Made by a program: the position numbers and the translations under genes. From positions 6-64,005 of the forward strand of contig JAIXRA010000016.1 of NCBI GenBank assembly GCA_027485465.1: DNA of 64,000 bases, in the 5' to 3' direction. The notes under the pieces are model-generated. The model was given only the letters and a program-made list of their open reading frames with translations. It did no database searches and was not told the DNA's origin. Source of the stretch: Bacteroidota bacterium (GTDB lineage: Bacteria; Bacteroidota; Bacteroidia; UBA7662). Numbering within the stretch: the first letter of the stretch is position 1; each line of letters starts with the position of its first letter. This document shows, piece by piece, positions 2 through 60,729 of the stretch.

Positions 2-736
2 CGTCATCCGTCGCTTTTTGCATTGAATACCCAAGTAAGGGGGGATACGGTGATTTGGAGTGGTTTTGGGAATCCGACACCGGCGTTGCCCTTGAACAGT
101 CTTTTGTTTCGCTTGAAATTTGTTTTGCCCACTTCTCTATCAGGTACCTTCCCGGTTCGTTGGCTGCCATCCTACTCCTATATGAGCGATGTTTATCAGG
201 GTTCCTGGAACTTGTCGCTGGCCGATGGGGGGGTGGAGGCGGTTCCGGTCTTGGTCCCATTGCAGATACGACGGCAGTTTCTAGGAGGTCAATACACCGA
301 TACTTTGGAGGTGAACCCGCAGCCTGGGGCGGCGGTACAATGGTTTTTGAATGGTCAGGTCCTGGCAGGTGGGGATAATGGACGGCTTTTGGCCGTTTTG
401 GGCGGGGATTACACCGCAGTACAGAACGTTTCTGGGTGTTTTTCGGCTGTTTCTGCGCCATTTCGGGTCGATCCAGTCGGACTTGAACCATTCTCGGCAG
501 TTCATCGTTCGCTCCTGTATCCTAACCCGGTCCTTGGGAGTTTGGACTGGGAGCAATTGGTAAAGGTCTTGGTAAGCGAAGGAATGACCCCGCCTTTTGA
601 GGGTACGGTGGTGGGACTATCAGGCGGTGTTGTTGGCTCAGTGCAGGAGGTTATCGATTTAGCCCCTGGTTTCTATGGTCTATGGATAAAAGATGCCAGA
701 GGCCGTAATGTATTTATTCGTTTTTTGAAAGGATAA
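2..736 (+). CDS. Secreted protein of unknown function, 5'-truncated at the window edge, ending in a T9SS (Por) C-terminal sorting domain
   Basis: Frame is open back to position 2, so the gene likely starts upstream of the window. The last ~75 aa (..SLLYPNPVLGSL..GFYGLWIKDARGRNVFIRFLKG) match the Por_Secre_tail pattern (PNP motif, GxY..ends in K-rich beta strand). Confidence 0.45.
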   Translation, partial: RHPSLFALNTQVRGDTVIWSGFGNPTPALPLNSLLFRLKFVLPTSLSGTFPVRWLPSYSYMSDVYQGSWNLSLADGGVEAVPVLVPLQIRRQFLGGQYTDTLEVNPQPGAAVQWFLNGQVLAGGDNGRLLAVLGGDYTAVQNVSGCFSAVSAPFRVDPVGLEPFSAVHRSLLYPNPVLGSLDWEQLVKVLVSEGMTPPFEGTVVGLSGGVVGSVQEVIDLAPGFYGLWIKDARGRNVFIRFLKG

Positions 737-23759: not shown

Positions 23760-23808
23760 CACTCCCTCAAAAATAGGGGTCGGACAACGATACCAGAAAC
23801 CAAACACC

Positions 23809-40500: not shown

Positions 40501-41217
40501 ATGCGCCACGGAAATACCATTAACCACCTCAGTCGGACCTACGGTCATCGCAAGGCGATGCTCCGTAACATGGCCGTCTCCCTGATCATGAACAAACGAA
40601 TCAACACCACCTTGGCCAAGGCCAAAGAGTTGCGGAAGTTTGTTGAACCTGTTTTGACCCGTTCCAAGTCGGATACCATGCACAATCGTCGGATGATTTT
40701 TGCCGATTTGCAGGACAAAGAAGCCGTCAAGGAATTGTTTGCCACGGTTGCCGAAAAAATTGCGACCCGCCCTGGAGGCTATACCCGTATCATCAAGACA
40801 GGTTTTCGTTTGGGTGATGCCGCGGAAATGTGCATGATGGAATTGGTAGACTTCAACGAATTGTTGTTGGCCGATGCGGCGTCTCGCAAAGCCAAAACGA
40901 CCCGTCGTAGCCGTTCTACGAAGAAGTCAGCGACGGGTATGGAAGCTGCTGCTCCTGTAGCTGCTGCTGCAATAGCTGCTGCTGCTCCTGTTGCAGAAGT
41001 GGCTGCTCCTGAAGTTGTGGAGGAGGCTCCCGCCGTTGTGGAGGAGGTTCCCGCTGTTGTGGAGGAGGCTCCCGCCGTTGTGGAAGAGGCTCCCGCCGTT
41101 GTGGAAGAGGCTCCCGCCGTTGTGGAAGAGGCTCCCGCCGTTGTGGAGGCGGCTCCCGCCGCTGAGGAAAGCGCACCCCAGGACGAAAGCCCCGAACAAG
41201 AGGAGCCCAAAGCCTAA
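40501..41217 (+). CDS. rplQ: 50S ribosomal protein L17 with a long Ala/Glu/Pro/Val-rich repetitive C-terminal extension
   Basis: Conserved L17 core (~120 aa) followed by ~110 aa of (EAPAVVEE)n. Confidence 0.92.
41013..41165 (+). repeat. ~6 head-to-tail copies of a 24-nt in-frame repeat (gaggctcccgccgttgtggaggag) inside rplQ
   Basis: Near-identical tandem units encode EAPAVVEE. The antisense frame reads as a Pro/Arg-rich pseudo-ORF. Confidence 0.85.
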
Positions 41218-41323: not shown

Positions 41324-43769
<2,446 letters not shown>

Positions 43770-43778
43770 ATACTAGGC

Positions 43779-44081
43779 ATGCCCGGTTCTATCATGCGTC
43801 TTCTTCGGAACCGTTACGTTCTCGCGGGGCTTGCCTTTGTTTTGTGGCTCTTGTTTTTGGATGAATACAATTGGATAGGTCAGGCCAAGGTTCGCCGTGA
43901 GTGGAGGCTTCTACAGAAGCAGAAGTCCTTTTATGATTCTTCCATCCAAGTCATGACCCGAGAGAAAGCCGCTTTGGAGTCGGATACCCTTTTGTTGGAA
44001 CGATTGGCCCGCGAAAAGTACCGAATGGTCAAGCCCGGGGAATCGGTATTTTGGTTGTTGGACTCGGGGCAGGCTCTCTAA
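43779..44081 (+). CDS. ftsB: Septum formation initiator FtsB/DivIC-like protein
   Basis: 100 aa with one TM helix plus a coiled coil. The conserved eno-ftsB adjacency matches E. coli. Confidence 0.65.
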   Translation: MPGSIMRLLRNRYVLAGLAFVLWLLFLDEYNWIGQAKVRREWRLLQKQKSFYDSSIQVMTREKAALESDTLLLERLAREKYRMVKPGESVFWLLDSGQAL

Positions 44082-44082
44082 G

Positions 44083-44793
44083 TTATTCCAGGTTTTGTTT
44101 GAGTAGAAGGGCGGTGCTCATCGCTGCCACGCAGCGTTCCACACGGGGGGCAAGGTTTCTCGCGAGGCAAACTTCGCCACGGTTGATCAGCGATATTTGC
44201 CCAAGGACCCGACCGTCTTGTTCAAAACGCAATCCAGCATGGGTGGCCCCAAGCCAGCGATGGTTCCCTTCGAGGGTACGTAGGCTGTGAATTTCGATGA
44301 GAGGTTGGCCGGGAATGTCCAAATGACCGCAAAGGCTCTGTCGGCGTGTCGTGTTTTCAGGTCTAAAAAGCACAAACTCGGCGAGGGGCTCTCCGGCACT
44401 GCGAATTTCACCGGTCATTAGATGGCTGTACGACAAAGGCAAAGCGATTCTTCCCTGCCATAGCGGAACGTCGCTTTGTTTGAAACGGGCATGGGTTGTG
44501 ATCGTATCCTGTGTACCATCGCCGGCACTCTGGATGATGCGCATGCGCTGATTGGCTCCACTAAAACGAATGCGAACATTGGCTTGGTAGGAATTGACGG
44601 GGCCTCGGCGTACTTTGAGGGTGGCGTAGGGGCCGTAGGATACTTTGATTTTGAATCGGAATTGTTGACGGCCTTGCACCGGATAACAATCCGATTGACC
44701 TTGGAGACCGGGGTCCAGGGCCAGTCGGATTGGCGTGCATGAAGACGTCAGGAATACCAAGGTGGCGAACAGTAGATAGTAGAATGATTTCAT
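44083..44793 (-). CDS. Lipoprotein of unknown function
   Basis: Signal peptide plus lipobox (LTSSC). It is the last gene of the DUF62-fabG-VWA operon. Confidence 0.6.
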   Translation of the reverse strand: MKSFYYLLFATLVFLTSSCTPIRLALDPGLQGQSDCYPVQGRQQFRFKIKVSYGPYATLKVRRGPVNSYQANVRIRFSGANQRMRIIQSAGDGTQDTITTHARFKQSDVPLWQGRIALPLSYSHLMTGEIRSAGEPLAEFVLFRPENTTRRQSLCGHLDIPGQPLIEIHSLRTLEGNHRWLGATHAGLRFEQDGRVLGQISLINRGEVCLARNLAPRVERCVAAMSTALLLKQNLE

Positions 44794-44806
44794 GTTATGA
44801 ATTCAA

Positions 44807-46984
44807 TTAGATTCCTCCAAGGGCTCGTGCAAGGAGCCATTCAGCCCCTAACAACAGCGAAACAAGAACCCAAAACCAAATGGATCGTAACCAAGGGCTT
44901 GAGACCAAGCTTAGGCTGCTTTCGGATCGGATGGTCGGATGTTTTTTTATTTTTTGGCTTAGTTGATTCAGGGCCACGGCGCGTGATTTCGCATCCCATG
45001 CATCCATGCGCAGATAGGTCCCGCCGCTCTGCTTCGCTAGGTTCTGGAGCAAGGCGTGGTCACCGGGTTCGCCAGGGTTTTCGAGTCCAAAGGATTGCAC
45101 AGCCAAAACTCCGTTCTTTACGAGAGGCAGTCCGTTGGCGGAGGTGGTGGCGGTGTATCGGTAGGTGCCGGCTTCTAACCGACCCAAATCAAGGCGGTAC
45201 CCCAAACCGTCCGGGACCATGGCGGCATCCCGGACCAGGCGATCCTTTTGAAAAAGTTGAAGTCGTAGGGTGCTTTGGTTGTCAAATTCACCCTGTGCAT
45301 TGCGCAGGCTGCCCTCAAGCAGGACCGGTTGTGTTTCGTTAAAGAAGGGACGAACAGGTCGAATTTCCAGTCCTTCGGAGGCCTGCCCACCCAACAGCAG
45401 AGAAACGGTGTTAAGAACAAGGCTCTCTAAGGGGGTCGTCGCGACCGAACCATTTATTCCGGACCGATGATCGGAATCCATGGCCAATCGCCAACGCCAC
45501 AAGCCCTCGCCCCAGAGGTAGGCCCGGGTAGGGCGGCTTCGGTATTCCACAACCCACAAGGGTCGTTGGGTGACAACACGATCCTTTTGTTGGTACAAGA
45601 GGGTTGTTCCGACCGGGGATTCGATAGGGCCCAGAGAAGGGGTGGTTAACGGAGGGAGACGGCGAATTCCCTCAGCGAGTTGCACCCCGGGTAGGAAGGC
45701 ATTCCAACGATCATTAAGAACGGGGAGAACCTGAACCATCGGAACCGAGGCGGTGGGTCGCCCCTCCGGCCACCCTTTCCAATCGCTGGCCGCTCCACCC
45801 ATCCACCAAAGCGGTTGGCCCTTTTGTTGAATTTTTTGGAGGAGGTCGGCTTCGCCGGGTTCGGGGTTGGCCGAAGGCCATTGATGCCAGATATAAAGGT
45901 CTGCCGAGGGGTCCGCAACGGCTTTGCGCAAGCCTGCCAGACCATACTCCAATTGCACGACATGATTTTTGGTTTGTTCCAAGACGCTCCGCAGGACCCC
46001 CAAGTCCGGGTGCGGGGCTTTGGCTAGCAAAAGGAGGCGCTTTTTGGTCCGAACGGCTTCCACAAAGGCCAGCTTTTCTGGACTATCCAGGACCTTGCCC
46101 GGTCCAGAGGCGCCGCTGATGCTTCGGCCTCTGAATCGAATCGCATACAGGCCTTCTTCGCCAATTGAAATTTTGAAAGTAAGGTTTTGTTGAAAGGAGC
46201 CTGCTCCCGGTTGCCAAACACGGCGCTCAGCAAGGATAGGTGGGGACGAACCAGCCGAAACCAAGGCCTCGACTTGCAATGTTTGGCCGGTCATGTGATG
46301 GCCTCGTACAGGGATTTCGATTTCCAAATCGCTGTGAGCTTCGACGCGATCGGGAACGGACGGAGAACCGAGGGTCCATGTAGGTAGTTGGCCTTGGTCT
46401 GGCCCACATCCCAACGTCAAGACCGGACTTTGATAGTTTGCAAAAAAGGAACGCGGTTCGACCCCCATGTTAAACAGCCCATCGCTGACGAGGACCCAGG
46501 CAGCGATGCTTTCCAATCCCGCTTGGTCCGAGGTCCAATGGGCCAGGGGTTCGGTGGATGTTAGGCTTTGGTCCAAGTGGACCGAACCGGGTTGGGATGG
46601 GTTCAGTCGGTCGGCCCCTGCTCCAAATCCAACCACATCAATTCGATGGGTTCCTCGAAGTTTTTGGGTGAATTCCAAAGCAAATGAACGCAAACCTTCG
46701 GCGCTGACGCCGGGGCGGTTCATGGACTGACTTTGGTCCAAGGCCAAGACGATCAGTGGCGATTGAACGATTCGTTCTTCCCGAATCCAGGTGGGATCAA
46801 AACAGAGCAGAACCAGCAAAAAAACCGCCAATCCGCGCAAAATCCCAAGGAACAATCGGGCCTTTCTCGAAGGTTGGTTGGGTAAAGGGCGCCCATGTTT
46901 TGCCCAAGCCCAGGCCAAGCCTGCAGCGGCGGACAATGGCAGTACCCATAAAGGGGAACCCCATCCCAGTTCGAGATATCCCAT
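44807..46984 (-). CDS. Large membrane protein with a BatA_N-like N-terminal anchor, VWA domain and C-terminal TM helix
   Basis: N-terminal TM region, a DxSxS MIDAS-like motif (LALDQSQSMN), 725 aa, and a C-terminal hydrophobic helix. Confidence 0.55.
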   Translation of the reverse strand: MGYLELGWGSPLWVLPLSAAAGLAWAWAKHGRPLPNQPSRKARLFLGILRGLAVFLLVLLCFDPTWIREERIVQSPLIVLALDQSQSMNRPGVSAEGLRSFALEFTQKLRGTHRIDVVGFGAGADRLNPSQPGSVHLDQSLTSTEPLAHWTSDQAGLESIAAWVLVSDGLFNMGVEPRSFFANYQSPVLTLGCGPDQGQLPTWTLGSPSVPDRVEAHSDLEIEIPVRGHHMTGQTLQVEALVSAGSSPPILAERRVWQPGAGSFQQNLTFKISIGEEGLYAIRFRGRSISGASGPGKVLDSPEKLAFVEAVRTKKRLLLLAKAPHPDLGVLRSVLEQTKNHVVQLEYGLAGLRKAVADPSADLYIWHQWPSANPEPGEADLLQKIQQKGQPLWWMGGAASDWKGWPEGRPTASVPMVQVLPVLNDRWNAFLPGVQLAEGIRRLPPLTTPSLGPIESPVGTTLLYQQKDRVVTQRPLWVVEYRSRPTRAYLWGEGLWRWRLAMDSDHRSGINGSVATTPLESLVLNTVSLLLGGQASEGLEIRPVRPFFNETQPVLLEGSLRNAQGEFDNQSTLRLQLFQKDRLVRDAAMVPDGLGYRLDLGRLEAGTYRYTATTSANGLPLVKNGVLAVQSFGLENPGEPGDHALLQNLAKQSGGTYLRMDAWDAKSRAVALNQLSQKIKKHPTIRSESSLSLVSSPWLRSIWFWVLVSLLLGAEWLLARALGGI

Positions 46985-46995
46985 GGTCTAAAGGC

Positions 46996-47754
46996 CTAGG
47001 CGGGATCCAGTCCCCCGCAGACATTCCAACATTGCCCGGTGACATAGGAGGCCCGATCCGATGCCAAGAAAGCAATGACTTCAGCCACTTCATCAACGGT
47101 TCCGGGTCGGCCCAGCGGGATTTTGGCATTCCAAGCCTCCGAAACGGCCGGATCCAATTGACCGGTCATTTCGGTTTCGATGTAACCGGGTGCGACTGCA
47201 TTGCATCGAATGTTACGAGATCCCAATTCGCGAGCCAAGGATTGGGTGAAGGCAATGACGCCTGCCTTGGAGGCGGAGTAATTGCTTTGACCTGCGTTCC
47301 CACCGCGTCCGACCACCGACGATAGATTGATGATGCTGCCTTTGCGGTTTTTCATGAGGTGGCGAACGGCATGTTTGCACACGTTGAAGACGGATTTGAG
47401 GTTGTTATCCATCACCTGATCCCATTGTTCTTCGGTCATTCGAATCAACAATTGATCCCTCGTAATACCCGCGTTGTTCACGATGATTTCAAGTCCTCCA
47501 AAATCTGCGAGGATTTGTTCAATCAATTTTTCGGCTTGGGCATAATCAGCGGCATCCGAGGCGTAAGCCCGGGCCCGAACCCCCATGGCCTGCAATTCCT
47601 TTTCGAGTTCCAGGGCCGATTGTTGGGAGGATTTGTAGGTAAAAGCAATGTCGGCGCCCTGAGAAGCCAACTTGCGGGCGATGCCCATGCCAATCCCCCG
47701 ACTTCCGCCGGTGACCAGGGCTATTTTGCCTTGAAGTAGTGTAGTTGTATTCAT
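46996..47754 (-). CDS. fabG: 3-oxoacyl-[ACP] reductase-like short-chain dehydrogenase
   Basis: GKIALVTGGSRGIG cofactor motif, NNAG, and the S..YxxxK catalytic triad. It is highly FabG-like. Confidence 0.8.
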   Translation of the reverse strand: MNTTTLLQGKIALVTGGSRGIGMGIARKLASQGADIAFTYKSSQQSALELEKELQAMGVRARAYASDAADYAQAEKLIEQILADFGGLEIIVNNAGITRDQLLIRMTEEQWDQVMDNNLKSVFNVCKHAVRHLMKNRKGSIINLSSVVGRGGNAGQSNYSASKAGVIAFTQSLARELGSRNIRCNAVAPGYIETEMTGQLDPAVSEAWNAKIPLGRPGTVDEVAEVIAFLASDRASYVTGQCWNVCGGLDPA

Positions 47755-47786
47755 GGGTCCAAAGATAAACCAGCCAAAGGCTCCTG

Positions 47787-48647
47787 TCAGGAGCGTTCAA
47801 TCATCACTTGGTCCTGAACCCTCAGCCCCAGCAAGGTCTCGGCATGGTTGTTATTCAGAGCAATTTCGAGGTAACCGATGGCGTTGTAAAGCAGCGTAAG
47901 GTGCTGCCCTTCCACGGCATGGTAATGGCCTTGAATCCGGTCGCTGCGGTTTTCGTGTCGTAGGTTGGAGCGAAGCAGTACCTCGAAGGGTCGATCGGCC
48001 ACAAAGGCTTCGACGGTCCCTTGGTCCAAATTGGTATGCAGGTTGCCGTAACTATCCGCATAGAGGACCCGACCATGCAAGACCCCGTCTTGTTCAAAAA
48101 CTTTGTCGAGCCACATTCCGGTGGGATCCGAAACGGGTTCCTGCCATGGCTCAGGGGCTTTCGTTCGGGAAGGGTCTTGGCCCAAGGCATGGATGAGCAT
48201 ACCCAAGGGCCCGTCCAGCCAATCCAACAAAGCAAAGCCTGCATTCGGTCGGGATACCGTTAAAGGGTAACGTTGTACCAGGGGGGATTCGTCGCGGTCC
48301 ACCAAGAGGGGCAGGAGGCCTTGATCCGGCAAGGCAAACCAATGGCCCTGGTAACGGACCACGATAAACGAAGGCCAAGGGTTTTCTTGATTCTTGCTGC
48401 GATAGCCAACATCCAACAAATGCACCGTACCCGGTGGAAAAAAAGGGAAGGCGGTTTTGAGGACATAAACAGCCTCAACCAAGTCATACTTGCTAATATT
48501 GTGTGAAATATCTTCGGTTCGCCAATGCGGAAACCTGCTCAACAATCGCCCTCTCAGCATCGCGACATAAGGATCGCGCAGTCCGTAATCAGTGGTGAGG
48601 GTGAGAAGTGGCATGGGGAGAGCTAAGCAAGCGAAGACCGACCTCAA
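47787..48647 (-). CDS. SAM hydroxide adenosyltransferase family protein (DUF62; fluorinase/chlorinase/SAM hydrolase superfamily)
   Basis: LTLTTDYGLRDPYV N-terminal motif, DISHN, and C-terminal GNLHTN / LLYNAIGYLEIALN blocks align with SalL/FlA/PH0463-type enzymes. The true start may be the internal Met at 48614. Confidence 0.72.
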   Translation of the reverse strand: MRSVFACLALPMPLLTLTTDYGLRDPYVAMLRGRLLSRFPHWRTEDISHNISKYDLVEAVYVLKTAFPFFPPGTVHLLDVGYRSKNQENPWPSFIVVRYQGHWFALPDQGLLPLLVDRDESPLVQRYPLTVSRPNAGFALLDWLDGPLGMLIHALGQDPSRTKAPEPWQEPVSDPTGMWLDKVFEQDGVLHGRVLYADSYGNLHTNLDQGTVEAFVADRPFEVLLRSNLRHENRSDRIQGHYHAVEGQHLTLLYNAIGYLEIALNNNHAETLLGLRVQDQVMIERS

Positions 48648-48720
48648 ATTTATTCCATAGCCACCAAAGCCACGCCTTTTGCCTCACCCTAACGAACCAA
48701 AGGAATTTGATATAGCCGGA

Positions 48721-49668
48721 ATGGATCCCCTGGGATTCTACGGAGCGGGTAATACCCGTCAGGATCGTATGCAAGCAGCTTTTCCGGAGCTCAAGATGAC
48801 ACTTCGAGGGAGTCGCCTGCTCTTGGAGGGGAACGATCAAGTCATGAACCGTTTTCAGGTATTGTGGGAGCGTTTGTTACGGCAATGCAGCTTGGCCAAC
48901 GGTTTTCTGAGTGATGATGCCTTCAACGAAGCCATGGCCGGGCTGGAATCCCGTCAGCGCACCGAAACCACGGGCTTTGAGACCACCTCCAAAACTATCT
49001 TGGTGCACGGCCCCAACGGTCTCATCGTACGGGCGCGCACCCCAAACCAACAGCGCATGGTGGATGCCATGGAACGTTGTGATTTGTTGTTTGCCTTGGG
49101 TCCGGCGGGTTCCGGCAAAACCTACACCGCGGTGGCCCTCGCCGTCCGTTCCCTCAAAAACAAAGAGGTGCGAAAAATCATTCTGACCCGCCCGGCCGTG
49201 GAGGCCGGTGAGAGTTTGGGCTTCCTGCCCGGTGATCTCAAAGAAAAAGTGGATCCCTACCTGCGCCCCCTTTACGATGCCCTCGAAGATATGTTACCAC
49301 CCCAGAGGCTGGCCAAGTACCTGGAGGAGGGCATCATCGAAGTGGCTCCTTTGGCTTTTATGCGGGGTCGGACCTTGGACAAAGCCTTTGTGATTCTGGA
49401 CGAGGCGCAGAACTGCACCCCCACCCAGCTCAAAATGTTTTTGACTCGTATGGGTCCATCTGCTCGATTTATTGTTACGGGCGATTTGACCCAGGTTGAT
49501 TTGCCAACCCGAATGGTCTCAGGCCTGGGCCCCACCCTTCAAGTCCTCAAAGGTCTGCAGGGGATTGCCGTGGTTGAACTGAACGAAACCGATGTGGTCC
49601 GCCACCCCCTTGTCAAAACCATTGTTCAAGCCTACCAAAACCAAAACCAAAACAACGGTCATGCCTAA
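48721..49668 (+). CDS. phoH: PhoH-like ATPase
   Basis: P-loop [14 protein letters not shown] Walker B, and a PhoH N-domain. The start is ambiguous; a TTG at 48679 would also be in frame. Confidence 0.85.
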
Positions 49669-50623
49669 TTCCTTCCCTCAAGCGCCGATTCAATTACCCG
49701 GTATGACCGGCTTCTACCGGGGCAAGGTCCGGGATGTTTATTTCTTGGAAGAAGGTCGATTGGTGATGGTTGCCTCGGATCGTATTTCGGCCTTTGACGT
49801 GGTCCTGCCCGCGGCCATTCCCCGCAAAGGGGAGGTGCTCAACCGTACCGCCGCGTATTTTCTCGAAAAAACCAGGGATTTGGTACCTAACTGGCTGATC
49901 AGCAGCCCGCACCCTCGTGTTTCCTACGGTTACCGCGCCGAACCTGTCGCGGTGGAGATGGTGGTCCGTGGTTACCTGTCCGGGCATGCCTGGCGTTGTT
50001 ACAGGGACGGTGCCCGAACCCTCTGCGGGGTTCCGCTACCGGACGGTTTGCGGGAGTCTGACCCGTTGGGTGCGCCGATCATCACGCCCACCACCAAAGC
50101 ATCCCAAGGCCATGATCAAGACATTTCCCGGGAACAGATTTTGGAACAAGGGCTGGTCAGTGAAGAACATTACCGCACGATGGAGCAATACGCCCTGGCC
50201 TTGTTTGAACGCGGTTCCAAGATGGCTTTGGAGCGTGGTTTGATTTTGGTGGATACCAAATACGAGTTTGGCCTTTTGGACGGAAAAGTCATCTTGATGG
50301 ACGAAGTGCATACCCCCGATTCGTCCCGTTACTTCTACGCAGAGCCCTACCGGGAATTGCAAGAAACCGGCCAACCCCAACAGCAGTTGTCCAAAGAATT
50401 TGTTCGTCAGTGGCTTATTGTCCATGGTTTTCAGGGTTTACCCGGACAACAAATACCGCCCATGACCCCGGAGTGGGTTGAACAGATCAGTGCCCGATAC
50501 CAAGAATTGTACCATCAATTGACCGGCCAAGACCTGGGCCCTTCGGATGCTCTGCAAGTTGGCCTGGAACCCACCGATTGGGTCGATGATTTTTTGGACT
50601 ATCGTCGAACCCTCGGTCTCTAA
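49661..50623 (+). CDS. purC: Phosphoribosylaminoimidazole-succinocarboxamide (SAICAR) synthase
   Basis: [30 protein letters not shown] is diagnostic. The ATG at 49661 overlaps the phoH stop. Confidence 0.88.
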
Positions 50624-52394: not shown

Positions 52395-53666
52395 TTAGGT
52401 GGCGAACAATGGGAAGGTGGGGGCAAAGGCTTTGACTTCCTTTCCAACCGCTTCGGCGACCGAGGGATCCTGGTGTTGACGAATAACACGGTCAATCCAA
52501 TCGGCTATTTTTTCCATATCCACTTCATTCATACCCCTCGTGGTCACAGCGGCTGTACCCAAGCGAATACCGCTGGTCACCATCGGGGAAGCGGTATCAA
52601 AGGGGACCATGTTTTTGTTGATGGTGATATGGGCCCTTCCCAAGGCCTGCTCGGCTTGCTTTCCTGTGCATGATTTGTTACGAAGATCAATCAGCATGAG
52701 GTGGTTGTCTGTCCCCCCGGAAATGAGTTGGTAACCTCGATTCACCATCGCTGTTGCCAAGGCCTGGGCGTTCCGACGGACCCGTACGGTGTATTCCTTG
52801 AAGGAGGGAAGCAAGGCCTCACCAAACGCAACGGCTTTGGCCGCTATAATATGTTCCAAAGGTCCTCCCTGGGTTCCTGGGAAAACGCCGGAATCCAAAA
52901 GCGATGATAGCGAACGCAATTCGCCCTTGGGGTTACGTAGATTCCAAGGATTGGGTAGGTCTTCGCCCATCATAATGATGCCGCCCCGTGGACCCCGAAG
53001 GGTTTTGTGGGTGGTGGAGGTTACGATATGGCAATGCGGAAAGGGATGGTTCAACAATCCCGTAGCGATCAAACCGGAAGGATGGGAGATATCTGCCATT
53101 AACAGAGCACCAACTTCATCAGCAATCCGTCGAAGACGTGCATAATCCCAATCCCTGGGATAGGCGGATGCCCCGCAAATGATGAGCTTTGGCTGTACTG
53201 CTTTGGCTTTTTCGGCCACTCGGTCCCAATCGATGCAGCCTGTTTCTTGTTCCACCCCGTAGAAATGGGCCTTGTAAAGTTTGCCGGAGTAATTCACGGG
53301 TGAACCGTGGGTCAAGTGCCCTCCGTGGCTGAGATCAAAGCCCAAAATGGCGTCGCCCGGTTGGAGCACGGCCAGCATAACAGCCGCGTTGGCCTGGGCC
53401 CCCGAATGGGGTTGGACATTGGCCCAGCCCGCCCCAAAAAGTTGGCAAAGCCGGTCGATGGCTATTTGCTCGATTTGGTCAACAATTTCGCAACCACCGT
53501 AGTATCGTTTTCCGGGAAGGCCTTCAGCGTATTTATTGGTTAAAATGGAACCGGCCGCCTCCATGACCTGATCGGAGACATAATTTTCGGAAGCAATCAA
53601 TTCAAGGCCAACGCGTTGGCGTTCTTCTTCGGCTTGGATAAGGTCCGCCAAGAGGGTGTCGTTCAT
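52395..53666 (-). CDS. glyA: Serine hydroxymethyltransferase
   Basis: Full-length SHMT with the PLP lysine motif (..[12 protein letters not shown]..). Confidence 0.95.
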
Positions 53667-59420: not shown

Positions 59421-60074
59421 TTAGGGTATAAAGGAGTCTGTTGTCCAGGATTCTGGATGGGTTCGCCAAGCTTCCAGCGAGGTGAGGGCATCCGAAGAGA
59501 GGTAGCCCTGTTCAACGGCTGCTTCCAAGAGGTCGGAATAGGAGCAAAGGCTGATGGAACGAAAACCGGCCTCCTTAAAGCGCTCGTCGGCGATGGGAAA
59601 ACCATACGTAAAAACGCTCATAACACACAAAACATCCAGGCCCTCACTGCGCAATGTTTCGGCCGCTTGCAGGGAACTCTGTCCAGTGGAAATTAAATCT
59701 TCGATGAGGACGGTTCGGGACCCCGGTTCGGCTCGGCCTTCAACGAGGCTGCGGGTACCGTGCTCCTTGGCTTTGGCGCGAACGTACGCAAAAGGCAGAC
59801 CCAATTGTTCGGCCACCAGGACCCCTTGGGGAATGCCAGCGGTGGCTACTCCGGTGATCAAATCACAGCGACCGAAGGAGGCCGTTATTCGATCGGCCAA
59901 TTGCTGCCGGATGAACGTACGGTATTTGGGATAGGATAAGGTGATCCGGTTATCGCAATAGATGGGCGATAACCAACCCGAGGCCCACCGAAACGGTTGG
60001 GAAGGTGAAAACTTCACAGCTTTGGTTTCTAACAATATCTTCGCAACGGCCAAAGCGGTTTCTTTCATTTCCAT
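59421..60074 (-). CDS. pyrE: Orotate phosphoribosyltransferase
   Basis: PRPP-binding motif VLIEDLISTGQS, 217 aa. Confidence 0.9.
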   Translation of the reverse strand: MEMKETALAVAKILLETKAVKFSPSQPFRWASGWLSPIYCDNRITLSYPKYRTFIRQQLADRITASFGRCDLITGVATAGIPQGVLVAEQLGLPFAYVRAKAKEHGTRSLVEGRAEPGSRTVLIEDLISTGQSSLQAAETLRSEGLDVLCVMSVFTYGFPIADERFKEAGFRSISLCSYSDLLEAAVEQGYLSSDALTSLEAWRTHPESWTTDSFIP

Positions 60075-60729
60075 GACTCAAAATTACTTGTTTTTTTGCC
60101 AGGACGTTCCTTTTGAACTTCGAAGCCCCCGACCTGGAGAGTCGGTACAGGGGGTTGAGGAGGTCTGGAATAGGATCCAAAGCATCTTGTACAGCCAAGA
60201 AAAAACCAGCCAATCTCCGGGTTTTTGGGCTGCCCGCGATGTGGTTACAGAGGATCAAGACCGAATGTGGGCCGACTTGATGCAGCGATGTTGGTTGTTG
60301 GAGGCCGGTGGGGGGCTGATTTTTAGTGAAGATCAAATGTTATGGATTCTTCGACACGGTCGATGGGATCTGCCCAAGGGCAAAGCCGAGCCCGGCGAAA
60401 CCATGCTGGAAACGGCTATCAGGGAATGTGTTGAAGAGTGCGGTTTGGTTGATTTAACCCCGTTGGATTCCTATAAAAAATTGGAAACCAATCATTTGTA
60501 TCTATACAAAGGCCAAGTCGCTTGGAAGCGGAGCCATTGGTTCACCATGACCTGTCCGAAGGACCGCAATCAGCGGCTCCAACCCCAAATCGAAGAAGGC
60601 ATCACCGAGGTCCGTTGGATGTCACCCGAGGAGGTGCAATCGGTTGCCTTGCCAGGGACCTACCCATCGGTACGTAGCCTGCTGCAAGGGGCCGGCCCCG
60701 AATACCTCAAAGGTTTGGGTCGGATTTGA
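60073..60729 (+). CDS. NUDIX hydrolase
   Basis: Nudix box GKAEPGETMLETAIRECVEECGL. The ATG at 60073 is chosen as start but a shorter form is possible. The ORF-track 5' extension overlaps pyrE. Confidence 0.65.
   Translation: MTQNYLFFCQDVPFELRSPRPGESVQGVEEVWNRIQSILYSQEKTSQSPGFWAARDVVTEDQDRMWADLMQRCWLLEAGGGLIFSEDQMLWILRHGRWDLPKGKAEPGETMLETAIRECVEECGLVDLTPLDSYKKLETNHLYLYKGQVAWKRSHWFTMTCPKDRNQRLQPQIEEGITEVRWMSPEEVQSVALPGTYPSVRSLLQGAGPEYLKGLGRI

Follow-up and report, generated by a model that had tools for sequence, protein, structure and literature searches.

Probable junction of two older gene neighbourhoods in a tight DUF62-fabG-VWA-lipoprotein gene cluster of a Bacteroidota bacterium

A 64,000-nucleotide (nt) stretch of the Bacteroidota contig JAIXRA010000016.1 (assembly GCA_027485465.1; hereafter the window) carries, at 44083-48647, four minus-strand open reading frames (ORFs) of 286, 252, 725, and 236 amino acids (aa) in the window's ORF list, which encode a DUF62-fold protein, a 3-oxoacyl-ACP reductase (FabG), a large membrane protein that we call BIG, and a predicted lipoprotein. 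A preliminary description of this DNA had identified the four genes essentially correctly and had given the spacers between them as 32, 11, and 13 nt, the values that we also obtain from the ORF coordinates (47755-47786, 46985-46995, and 44794-44806). It went on to propose an envelope-associated module that pairs an S-adenosylmethionine (SAM)-cleaving DUF62 enzyme with a reductase, a functional interpretation that is largely refuted by the comparison of neighbourhoods presented here. We consider it likely that the cluster is a lineage-specific joining of [purC-phoH<>DUF62] and [fabG-BIG><ftsB-eno], together with an orphan lipoprotein gene, and that no dedicated pathway underlies it. The joining of the two older neighbourhoods would be recent, and the only old, widely kept link in the cluster is that of fabG with BIG.

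Neighbourhoods of BIG and DUF62 across Bacteroidota

BIG loci were collected in a species-level scan (one genome per species) that used the family motif GEGxWRWRL and started from seven BIG sequences; it returned at least 563 loci, of which the best 80 were scored by tblastn and 71 had enough upstream sequence to be evaluated. In 35 of these 71, BIG is preceded on its own strand by a FabG orthologue of 54-62% identity, which is immediately adjacent in 30 and about one gene away in 5; among them are loci from Pedobacter and other Sphingobacteriales, Flavobacteriales, Bacteroidales, and Cytophagales. Among the same 71 loci the link is missing in Chitinophagales, Saprospiraceae, Lewinellaceae, and some others. 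When neighbour ORFs were clustered all against all, FabG (36/79), FtsB (16), and Eno (13) were the sole recurrent neighbours of BIG, and in 29 of the 79 loci, drawn from several orders, FabG occupied position -1 in the same orientation; the gap between fabG and BIG has a median of a few tens of nt and is mostly below 100 nt. Even among BIG homologues of 21-25% identity, a 248-aa short-chain dehydrogenase/reductase (SDR) is encoded directly upstream in a Cytophagales chromosome, a gut Bacteroidales metagenome-assembled genome, and a second Bacteroidales metagenome-assembled genome, all three of which lack DUF62 and the lipoprotein gene; one distant BIG locus has neither the SDR nor DUF62 and the lipoprotein. 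The older fabG-BIG neighbourhood with ftsB-eno is also found in Sphingobacteriales. The adjacency of fabG and BIG thus recurs across orders in the manner of a conserved module (35/71), and the partnership between these two genes that the preliminary description had suspected is both real and old.

DUF62 behaves differently. It lies near BIG in 4 of the 71 loci, all from the window's own clade, in which the 725-aa protein is at least 39-40% identical, and it was also seen beside fabG in that clade in L001-L004 and L096. The locus that comes next in similarity, L016 (28% identity), retains fabG-BIG with ftsB-eno convergent on it and has no DUF62. A DUF62 homologue of 52% identity stands in the order purC-phoH<>DUF62-SDR-718 aa, and the fused arrangement therefore spans the whole clade. 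In genomes with BIG homologues of 39-41% identity, a region of ∼30 kb is syntenic throughout (rpoA-rplQ-carA-eno-ftsB ... BIG-fabG-DUF62 / phoH-purC-...), and because of this the conservation of gene order within the clade is uninformative on function.

The view from DUF62 complements these counts. We scanned metagenomes for 80 diverse Bacteroidota DUF62 loci and scored their neighbours by tblastn, with 51 or 53 loci evaluable depending on the neighbour. The phoH gene is divergent from and adjacent to DUF62 in 46 of 51 loci, purC lies within 3 kb in 38 of 51, and a gene for a protein of ∼90 aa with an ABM domain (PF03992) is adjacent downstream in 33 of 53. None of the 53 evaluable loci has FabG next to DUF62, and BIG occurs nowhere in any of the 80. 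We regard phoH and purC as ancestral neighbours of this Bacteroidota branch of DUF62. Four distant Bacteroidota DUF62 homologues (29-35% identity) are all divergent from phoH-purC, as in the window, and are followed by the small ABM-domain gene or, in one case, by purM, never by fabG or BIG; a non-Bacteroidota homologue sits in an unrelated context. No ABM gene is present in the 64-kb window. The preliminary description had itself named a linkage not conserved in other genomes as grounds for giving up the module, and for DUF62 this is what the neighbourhood analysis found: outside closely related syntenic genomes, adjacency to fabG was not observed (4/71 from the side of BIG, all four in the window's clade; 0/53 from the side of DUF62), which confines the pairing of DUF62 with the reductase to the window's clade. 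The conserved company of DUF62 (phoH, purC, and sometimes purM and S-adenosylhomocysteine hydrolase) fits nucleotide or SAM housekeeping better than envelope biology.

We note one locus of this kind separately. In L097 (5828-8915), DUF62 is followed by purM (AIRS), and a gene for S-adenosylhomocysteine hydrolase lies 1.8 kb farther downstream, a context that strengthens the link of DUF62 to purine and SAM-cycle housekeeping over envelope functions.

The fourth gene encodes a lipoprotein, as had been recognised earlier: the 236-aa protein has a signal peptide, and in the alignment its lipobox Cys19 is invariant in all homologues, as are four further Cys residues. It has no Pfam or NCBIfam match, and among 5.8 billion proteins there are just six clusters at ≥50% identity, so that it is confined to the closest relatives. 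Its structural model is poor (predicted local distance difference test score, pLDDT, 61) and a Foldseek search against the PDB returned nothing at E ≤ 0.001, so that no fold can be assigned. Compared by phmmer with the genes that lie behind BIG in sister-clade loci, the lipoprotein showed no homologue; there, the slot holds one or two paralogous lipoproteins of ∼557-561 aa (N-termini ...GSCNKDPL...) along with a secreted protein of 256-265 aa, for example at 10143-12659 in L001 and 3412-7674 in L015, or is empty, as in L014. What is inserted behind BIG varies from locus to locus, and the lipoprotein gene is young and clade-restricted. At its far end the lipoprotein gene (-) converges on ftsB (+), with a single nucleotide between the two stop codons (44081-44083), which leaves room for a terminator of either gene only within the coding sequence of the other.

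FabG, BIG, and the DUF62 branch

The preliminary description called the SDR "almost indistinguishable from FabG", and it is better read as FabG itself. The protein scores 325.9 bits against the FabG equivalog TIGR01830 (cut-off 297.75), and the VTGGSRGIG, LSS, and YSASK motifs, which correspond to NADP(H) binding and to the catalytic Ser, Tyr, and Lys, can be read directly in its translation. The best PDB matches are bona fide FabG proteins, including the E. coli enzyme 1i01, with 222-243 bits to the solved FabG structures; the window protein shares the cofactor and catalytic motifs, as well as the equivalog assignment, with both 1i01 and S. aureus 3osu. Other identities, among them FlxB (flexirubin) and acetoacetyl-CoA reductase, were considered and rejected, as each fell under its own cut-off. 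The SDRs adjacent to BIG in five distant loci all pass TIGR01830 (321-347 bits) and are therefore FabG by the same criterion, and no other SDR match was found in the 64-kb window. By these measures gene 2 scores as an ordinary reductase of type II fatty-acid synthesis, an NADPH-dependent 3-oxoacyl-ACP reductase. In contrast to the fabD-fabG-acpP-fabF arrangement, the window's fabG stands outside such a cluster and has BIG as its neighbour instead, as in the 35 Bacteroidota loci counted above.

BIG belongs to a large family that has no Pfam or NCBIfam model; at E ≤ 1e-30 it comprises 7,516 representatives, which are uniform in length (∼690-700 aa) and are named in public records either "hypothetical protein" or "VWA domain-containing protein". 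A Pfam sequence search with the window protein gives only a sub-threshold match to VWA_2, and the domains listed in Table 1 come from an AlphaFold model built with 20 homologues (pLDDT 81.8). The five residues of the metal ion-dependent adhesion site (MIDAS) in the VWA domain are invariant or nearly so in the family, and the site is complete. The preliminary description had presented the protein as a BatA_N/VWA protein; the MIDAS-containing VWA domain is borne out, but BatA_N is undetectable by sequence (PF07584 gives no match even at E ≤ 10 with BIG residues 1-92), and the resemblance is limited to the two-helix N-terminal anchor. Searching Pfam with separate segments (the N-terminus, the GATase1-like region, and the C-terminal part) gave no match to BatA_N, GATase, or any other family. 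The third domain nonetheless resembles in fold the GATase1/ThuA-like proteins 3rht (Planctomyces), STM3548 (2gk3), 4jqs, and 1t0b. Unlike GATase1-like enzymes, it has no conserved Cys: none occurs among the invariant or near-invariant columns of BIG, so that the Cys-His-Glu amidotransferase triad is not present and the GATase-like domain is without a nucleophile.

Positive charges in BIG are found in the loop between the first two transmembrane helices and after the last one, a distribution that predicts a periplasmic location for the ∼640-residue body. In the BatA-like protein BB0173 of Borrelia, the VWA domain was shown experimentally to be exposed to the periplasm (PMC5700661). BIG differs from BB0173 and from BatA and BatB of the Bacteroides aerotolerance operon in being ∼2 times longer, with extra Ig-like, GATase1-like, and C-terminal transmembrane parts. 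It further differs from BatA and BatB in lacking PF07584 and in lying behind fabG and not in a moxR-DUF58-batABCDE operon; its neighbours in the window are fabG, the lipoprotein gene, ftsB, and eno. The function of the Bat proteins is itself described as unproven (PMC3557215). From the model we infer that BIG is an inner-membrane protein anchored at both ends, which would serve as a metal-dependent periplasmic binding scaffold and be co-expressed with fabG.

The DUF62 protein belongs to the family to which it had been assigned, with both Pfam domains matched above the gathering score (PF01887, E 1e-25, 90.7 bits against a cut-off of 26.3; PF20257, E 2.6e-15, 56.9 bits against 25.5); the N-domain match covers profile positions 1-101 of 145. 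Translation probably begins at the ATG at 48614, since homologues (275 aa) and the Pfam match both start there; the resulting protein has 275 aa and opens with MPLLTLTTDYG. The two-domain family is common to the window protein and to the SAM hydroxide adenosyltransferases/(R)-SAM hydrolases PH0463, StDUF62, and MJ1651. Compared with these enzymes, the window protein retains the adenosyl-binding signature, made up of an N-terminal TTD(Y/F)G motif (as TTDYG) and a C-terminal YGN..TN, and the positions equivalent to H36 and H63. It falls far under the NCBIfam equivalog cut-offs for (R)-SAM hydrolases (NF053629, 64.1 against 470 bits; NF058624, 54.7 against 350 bits), and the context of its branch is phoH-purC and the ABM gene.

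The main departure lies in the His-Arg-Asp triad of the hydrolases, which we take to be D68/R75/H127 in PH0463, a numbering re-derived by counting along the PH0463 sequence. The triad Asp is arguably retained (LLDVG). An Arg at the R75 column and a His at the H127 column are found in none of the 36 aligned Bacteroidota DUF62 sequences, and motif checks show HGRD, DPGxG, and [FYW]HG to be absent in 80 of 80 metagenomic Bacteroidota loci. The motifs DPGVGT and FHGRD are carried by the non-Bacteroidota homologues P0074 and P0076 and by archaeal PH0463, and are missing in every Bacteroidota member examined. This water-activating triad is described as strictly conserved in DUF62 hydrolases (PMC10491745). 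The window protein is a member of the DUF62 superfamily, yet its triad is without Arg and His, and membership among the SAM hydrolases therefore fails a defining feature.

The fluorinase FlA and the chlorinase SalL have the fold family in common with the window protein, and the hydrolase triad is missing in all three. In SalL, the halide pocket is formed by Gly and Tyr residues. The window protein differs from both halogenases in having no biosynthetic gene-cluster context and no ion-binding signature, which in fluorinase consists of Thr, aromatic, aromatic, and Ser residues (PMC12080486). A comparison of active sites had been suggested in the preliminary description, and it shows that neither this ion site nor the SalL pocket is present; the equivalent stretch of the window protein is GFALLD, which is variable in the branch. 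The earlier statement that the DUF62 protein cleaves SAM at C5′ with halide or hydroxide is thus doubtful, as the Arg and His of the triad and the ion-site residues of the halogenases are all missing. Rfam reports no RNA family in 43000-50000, and there is therefore no SAM riboswitch before DUF62. On sequence grounds, the window protein probably still binds SAM or another adenosyl compound. Members of its branch are routinely annotated as "S-adenosylmethionine hydrolase", a name that may be incorrect for them.

Table 1. Positions of the genes, domains, and promoter-like boxes discussed in the text (window coordinates; residue numbers refer to BIG)
Feature	Position	Strand	Remark
DUF62-fold protein (SAM_HAT_N + SAM_HAT_C)	47787..48614	-	275 aa from ATG at 48614; Pfam
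DUF62, mechanical ORF	47787..48647	-	286 aa, TTG start at 48647
fabG, 3-oxoacyl-ACP reductase	46996..47754	-	252 aa; TIGR01830
BIG, 725-aa membrane protein	44807..46984	-	conserved downstream partner of fabG
Predicted lipoprotein, 236 aa	44083..44793	-	clade-restricted orphan
BIG N-terminal transmembrane helices	residues 14-30, 40-62		model
BIG VWA/MIDAS domain	residues 65-195; 46400..46792	-	D83, S85, S87, T142, D168
BIG Ig-like sandwich 1	residues 200-311		model
BIG GATase1-like (ThuA/PF07090-like fold, Rossmann-like) domain	residues 315-530; 45395..46042	-	fold match
BIG Ig-like sandwich 2	residues 539-630		model
BIG small alpha/beta domain	residues 643-697		model
BIG C-terminal transmembrane helix	residues 702-721		model
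TAAATTTG, TAnnTTTG match	48645..48652	-	30 nt upstream of DUF62 ATG; consensus match only
TATCTTTG, TAnnTTTG -7-like box	47760..47767	-	in 32-nt DUF62-fabG spacer, ends 5 nt before fabG ATG
phoH	48679-49668	+	divergent from DUF62; Pfam
purC	about 49658-50623	+	downstream of phoH; Pfam
eno	42477-43769	+	convergent on cluster; part of older fabG-BIG neighbourhood
ftsB	43779-44081	+	convergent on cluster; part of older fabG-BIG neighbourhood

Transcription signals and competing explanations

The -7 promoter consensus of Bacteroidota is TAnnTTTG. The window contains 23 matches to it, and 5 of these are correctly oriented and lie ≤35 nt ahead of a long ORF, where a rough estimate gives a chance expectation of well under one. 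One of them, TATCTTTG, lies between DUF62 and fabG, and the block TTATCTTTG before the fabG ATG is unchanged in six loci, although their spacers cannot otherwise be aligned. These features make TATCTTTG a candidate for an internal promoter that would serve fabG, BIG, and the lipoprotein gene. A start of its own is to be expected for fabG, since genomes without DUF62 require one, and fabG probably retains such a start, possibly a leaderless one. A second box, at 60079-60086 (-), precedes the ORF at 59421-60074; it and the fabG box end 4-5 nt before the ATG, which suggests leaderless or near-leaderless mRNAs for both. The remaining three boxes stand 26-32 nt upstream of genes, at 23768 (-), 41285 (+), and 48645 (-), the last being TAAATTTG in the 64-nt divergent spacer shared by DUF62 and phoH.

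Because the spacers that follow fabG and BIG measure 11 and 13 nt, fabG, BIG, and the lipoprotein gene are very likely on one transcript, and read-through from DUF62 is possible. None of the three spacers contains a terminator-like site. A terminator belonging to DUF62 itself, which the preliminary description had listed among the findings that would undo its operon, was looked for and none was recognisable; the hairpin over the DUF62 stop codon, the candidate considered, is weak and not unusual (z = -1.5).

We propose the following course of events. Block A (purC <- phoH <-|-> DUF62), typical of the Bacteroidota-specific DUF62 branch and normally followed by the ∼90-aa ABM gene, would have come to lie immediately before block B (fabG -> BIG, often with ftsB-eno converging on it) through a rearrangement in the window's clade, in which the ABM gene would have been lost or moved. 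The young lipoprotein gene would then have taken the variable slot behind BIG. In the resulting cluster, fabG, BIG, and the lipoprotein gene would be read together from the -7 box before fabG, with read-through from DUF62 as a possible addition, and the body of BIG, with its MIDAS-bearing VWA binding domain, a presumably non-catalytic GATase1-like domain, and two Ig-like domains, would act as a ligand- or protein-binding scaffold of the envelope.

We regard as highly improbable a true four-gene module, with a DUF62 enzyme that consumes SAM and three partners (the FabG-like reductase, the VWA protein, and the lipoprotein) whose target would be either the resulting product or a lipid. It would account for the tight same-strand packing without a terminator-like site and for an order kept through the clade down to ∼39% identity in BIG and 52% in DUF62, but the latter carries no information where the clade's ∼30-kb region is wholly syntenic. 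Outside the clade the DUF62-fabG link was never seen (0/53; BIG 0/80; 4/71, in its own clade only), each half of the cluster has an older conserved context of its own, the reductase scores as a FabG equivalog, the lipoprotein is absent from sister-clade loci, and a conserved promoter-like box separates DUF62 from fabG. An unlikely alternative is that the SDR is not the housekeeping FabG but a specialised paralogue that works with BIG on a substrate outside fatty-acid synthesis. FabG-type SDRs are notoriously hard to assign, and the scores of the window protein lie below the cut-offs of three other FabG equivalogs (for example NF004197, 312 against 332); however, both it and all five distant BIG-adjacent SDRs tested pass TIGR01830, identity across orders is 54-62%, as expected for an essential orthologue, the best solved relatives are genuine FabGs, and the window has no second SDR.

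That fabG and BIG form a functional pair is possible, although we do not favour it; BIG would then be an envelope factor, for instance in lipid or outer-membrane homeostasis, whose dosage has to keep pace with the synthesis of fatty acids and membrane lipids, and DUF62 and the lipoprotein would be passengers. FabG is by far the commonest neighbour of BIG (-1 on the same strand in 29/79, gaps mostly <100 nt), and the BIG family is large, uniform in length, and retentive of its MIDAS residues. About half of the loci are nevertheless without the link, including those of Chitinophagales, Saprospiraceae, and Lewinellaceae, there is no evident biochemical tie between a reductase of the cytoplasm and a scaffold predicted to be periplasmic, and old synteny can persist without function. 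A combined proposal, that fabG-BIG is a genuine unit across much of Bacteroidota in which BIG takes part in membrane or envelope lipid homeostasis, and that the DUF62 branch may carry out non-hydrolytic adenosyl transfer, is speculative and in our estimation doubtful.

Several considerations weigh against the joining of two older neighbourhoods as we describe it. In the clade, the DUF62-fabG spacers are short (32-45 nt) and contain no recognisable terminator, so that co-transcription of all four genes, and hence their co-regulation, is possible; the putative internal promoter is a conserved consensus match only. The fabG-BIG link, kept in about half of the loci, could be inherited synteny and not functional coupling. 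The fabG gene was judged within 64 kb of genome and need not be the sole or housekeeping copy, and the role proposed for BIG as a periplasmic binding scaffold would follow from fold and topology only.

Other features of the window and implications

Some features of the window stand apart from the cluster. The mechanical purC ORF, which begins at 49592, overlaps the end of phoH (49668) by 77 nt; a start near 49658, indicated by the SAICAR_synt match and by homologues, reduces the overlap to 11 nt, and the two genes are probably translationally coupled. On the minus strand stand, in this order, glyA (serine hydroxymethyltransferase, 52395-53666), an acyltransferase gene (PF19576/PF01553, 51539-52378), and an Acetyltransf_5 gene (PF13444, 50620-51555), a trio that is conserved in the related contigs L001, L004, and L096. 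The acyltransferase/Acetyltransf_5 pair resembles the GlsA/GlsB-type glycine-lipid acyltransferases, here directly behind the glycine-forming glyA. The gene for ribosomal protein L17 (40501-41217, +) encodes 238 aa, of which the L17 domain covers residues 20-116 only. Its C-terminal tail is rich in Ala, Pro, Glu, and Val and is encoded in part by a 21-nt tandem repeat (7.4 copies, 93% identity, 41014-41168) that reads roughly VVEEAPA; the L17 genes of L001 and L004 are also long (220-223 aa).

These findings do not uphold a SAM-plus-reductase envelope pathway, and they guard against inferring function from tight gene spacing alone. Interest remains in three points: fabG and BIG as an old pair, the large size of a BIG family that has no name, and a DUF62 branch without the triad. 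BIG represents a very large, unnamed family of Bacteroidota membrane proteins, linked to fabG in 35 of 71 loci; little is known about the biology of the envelope in this phylum, and BIG is a candidate for one of its factors. The phylum-wide DUF62 branch without the hydrolase triad bears on annotation and on enzyme discovery in the fluorinase/chlorinase superfamily.

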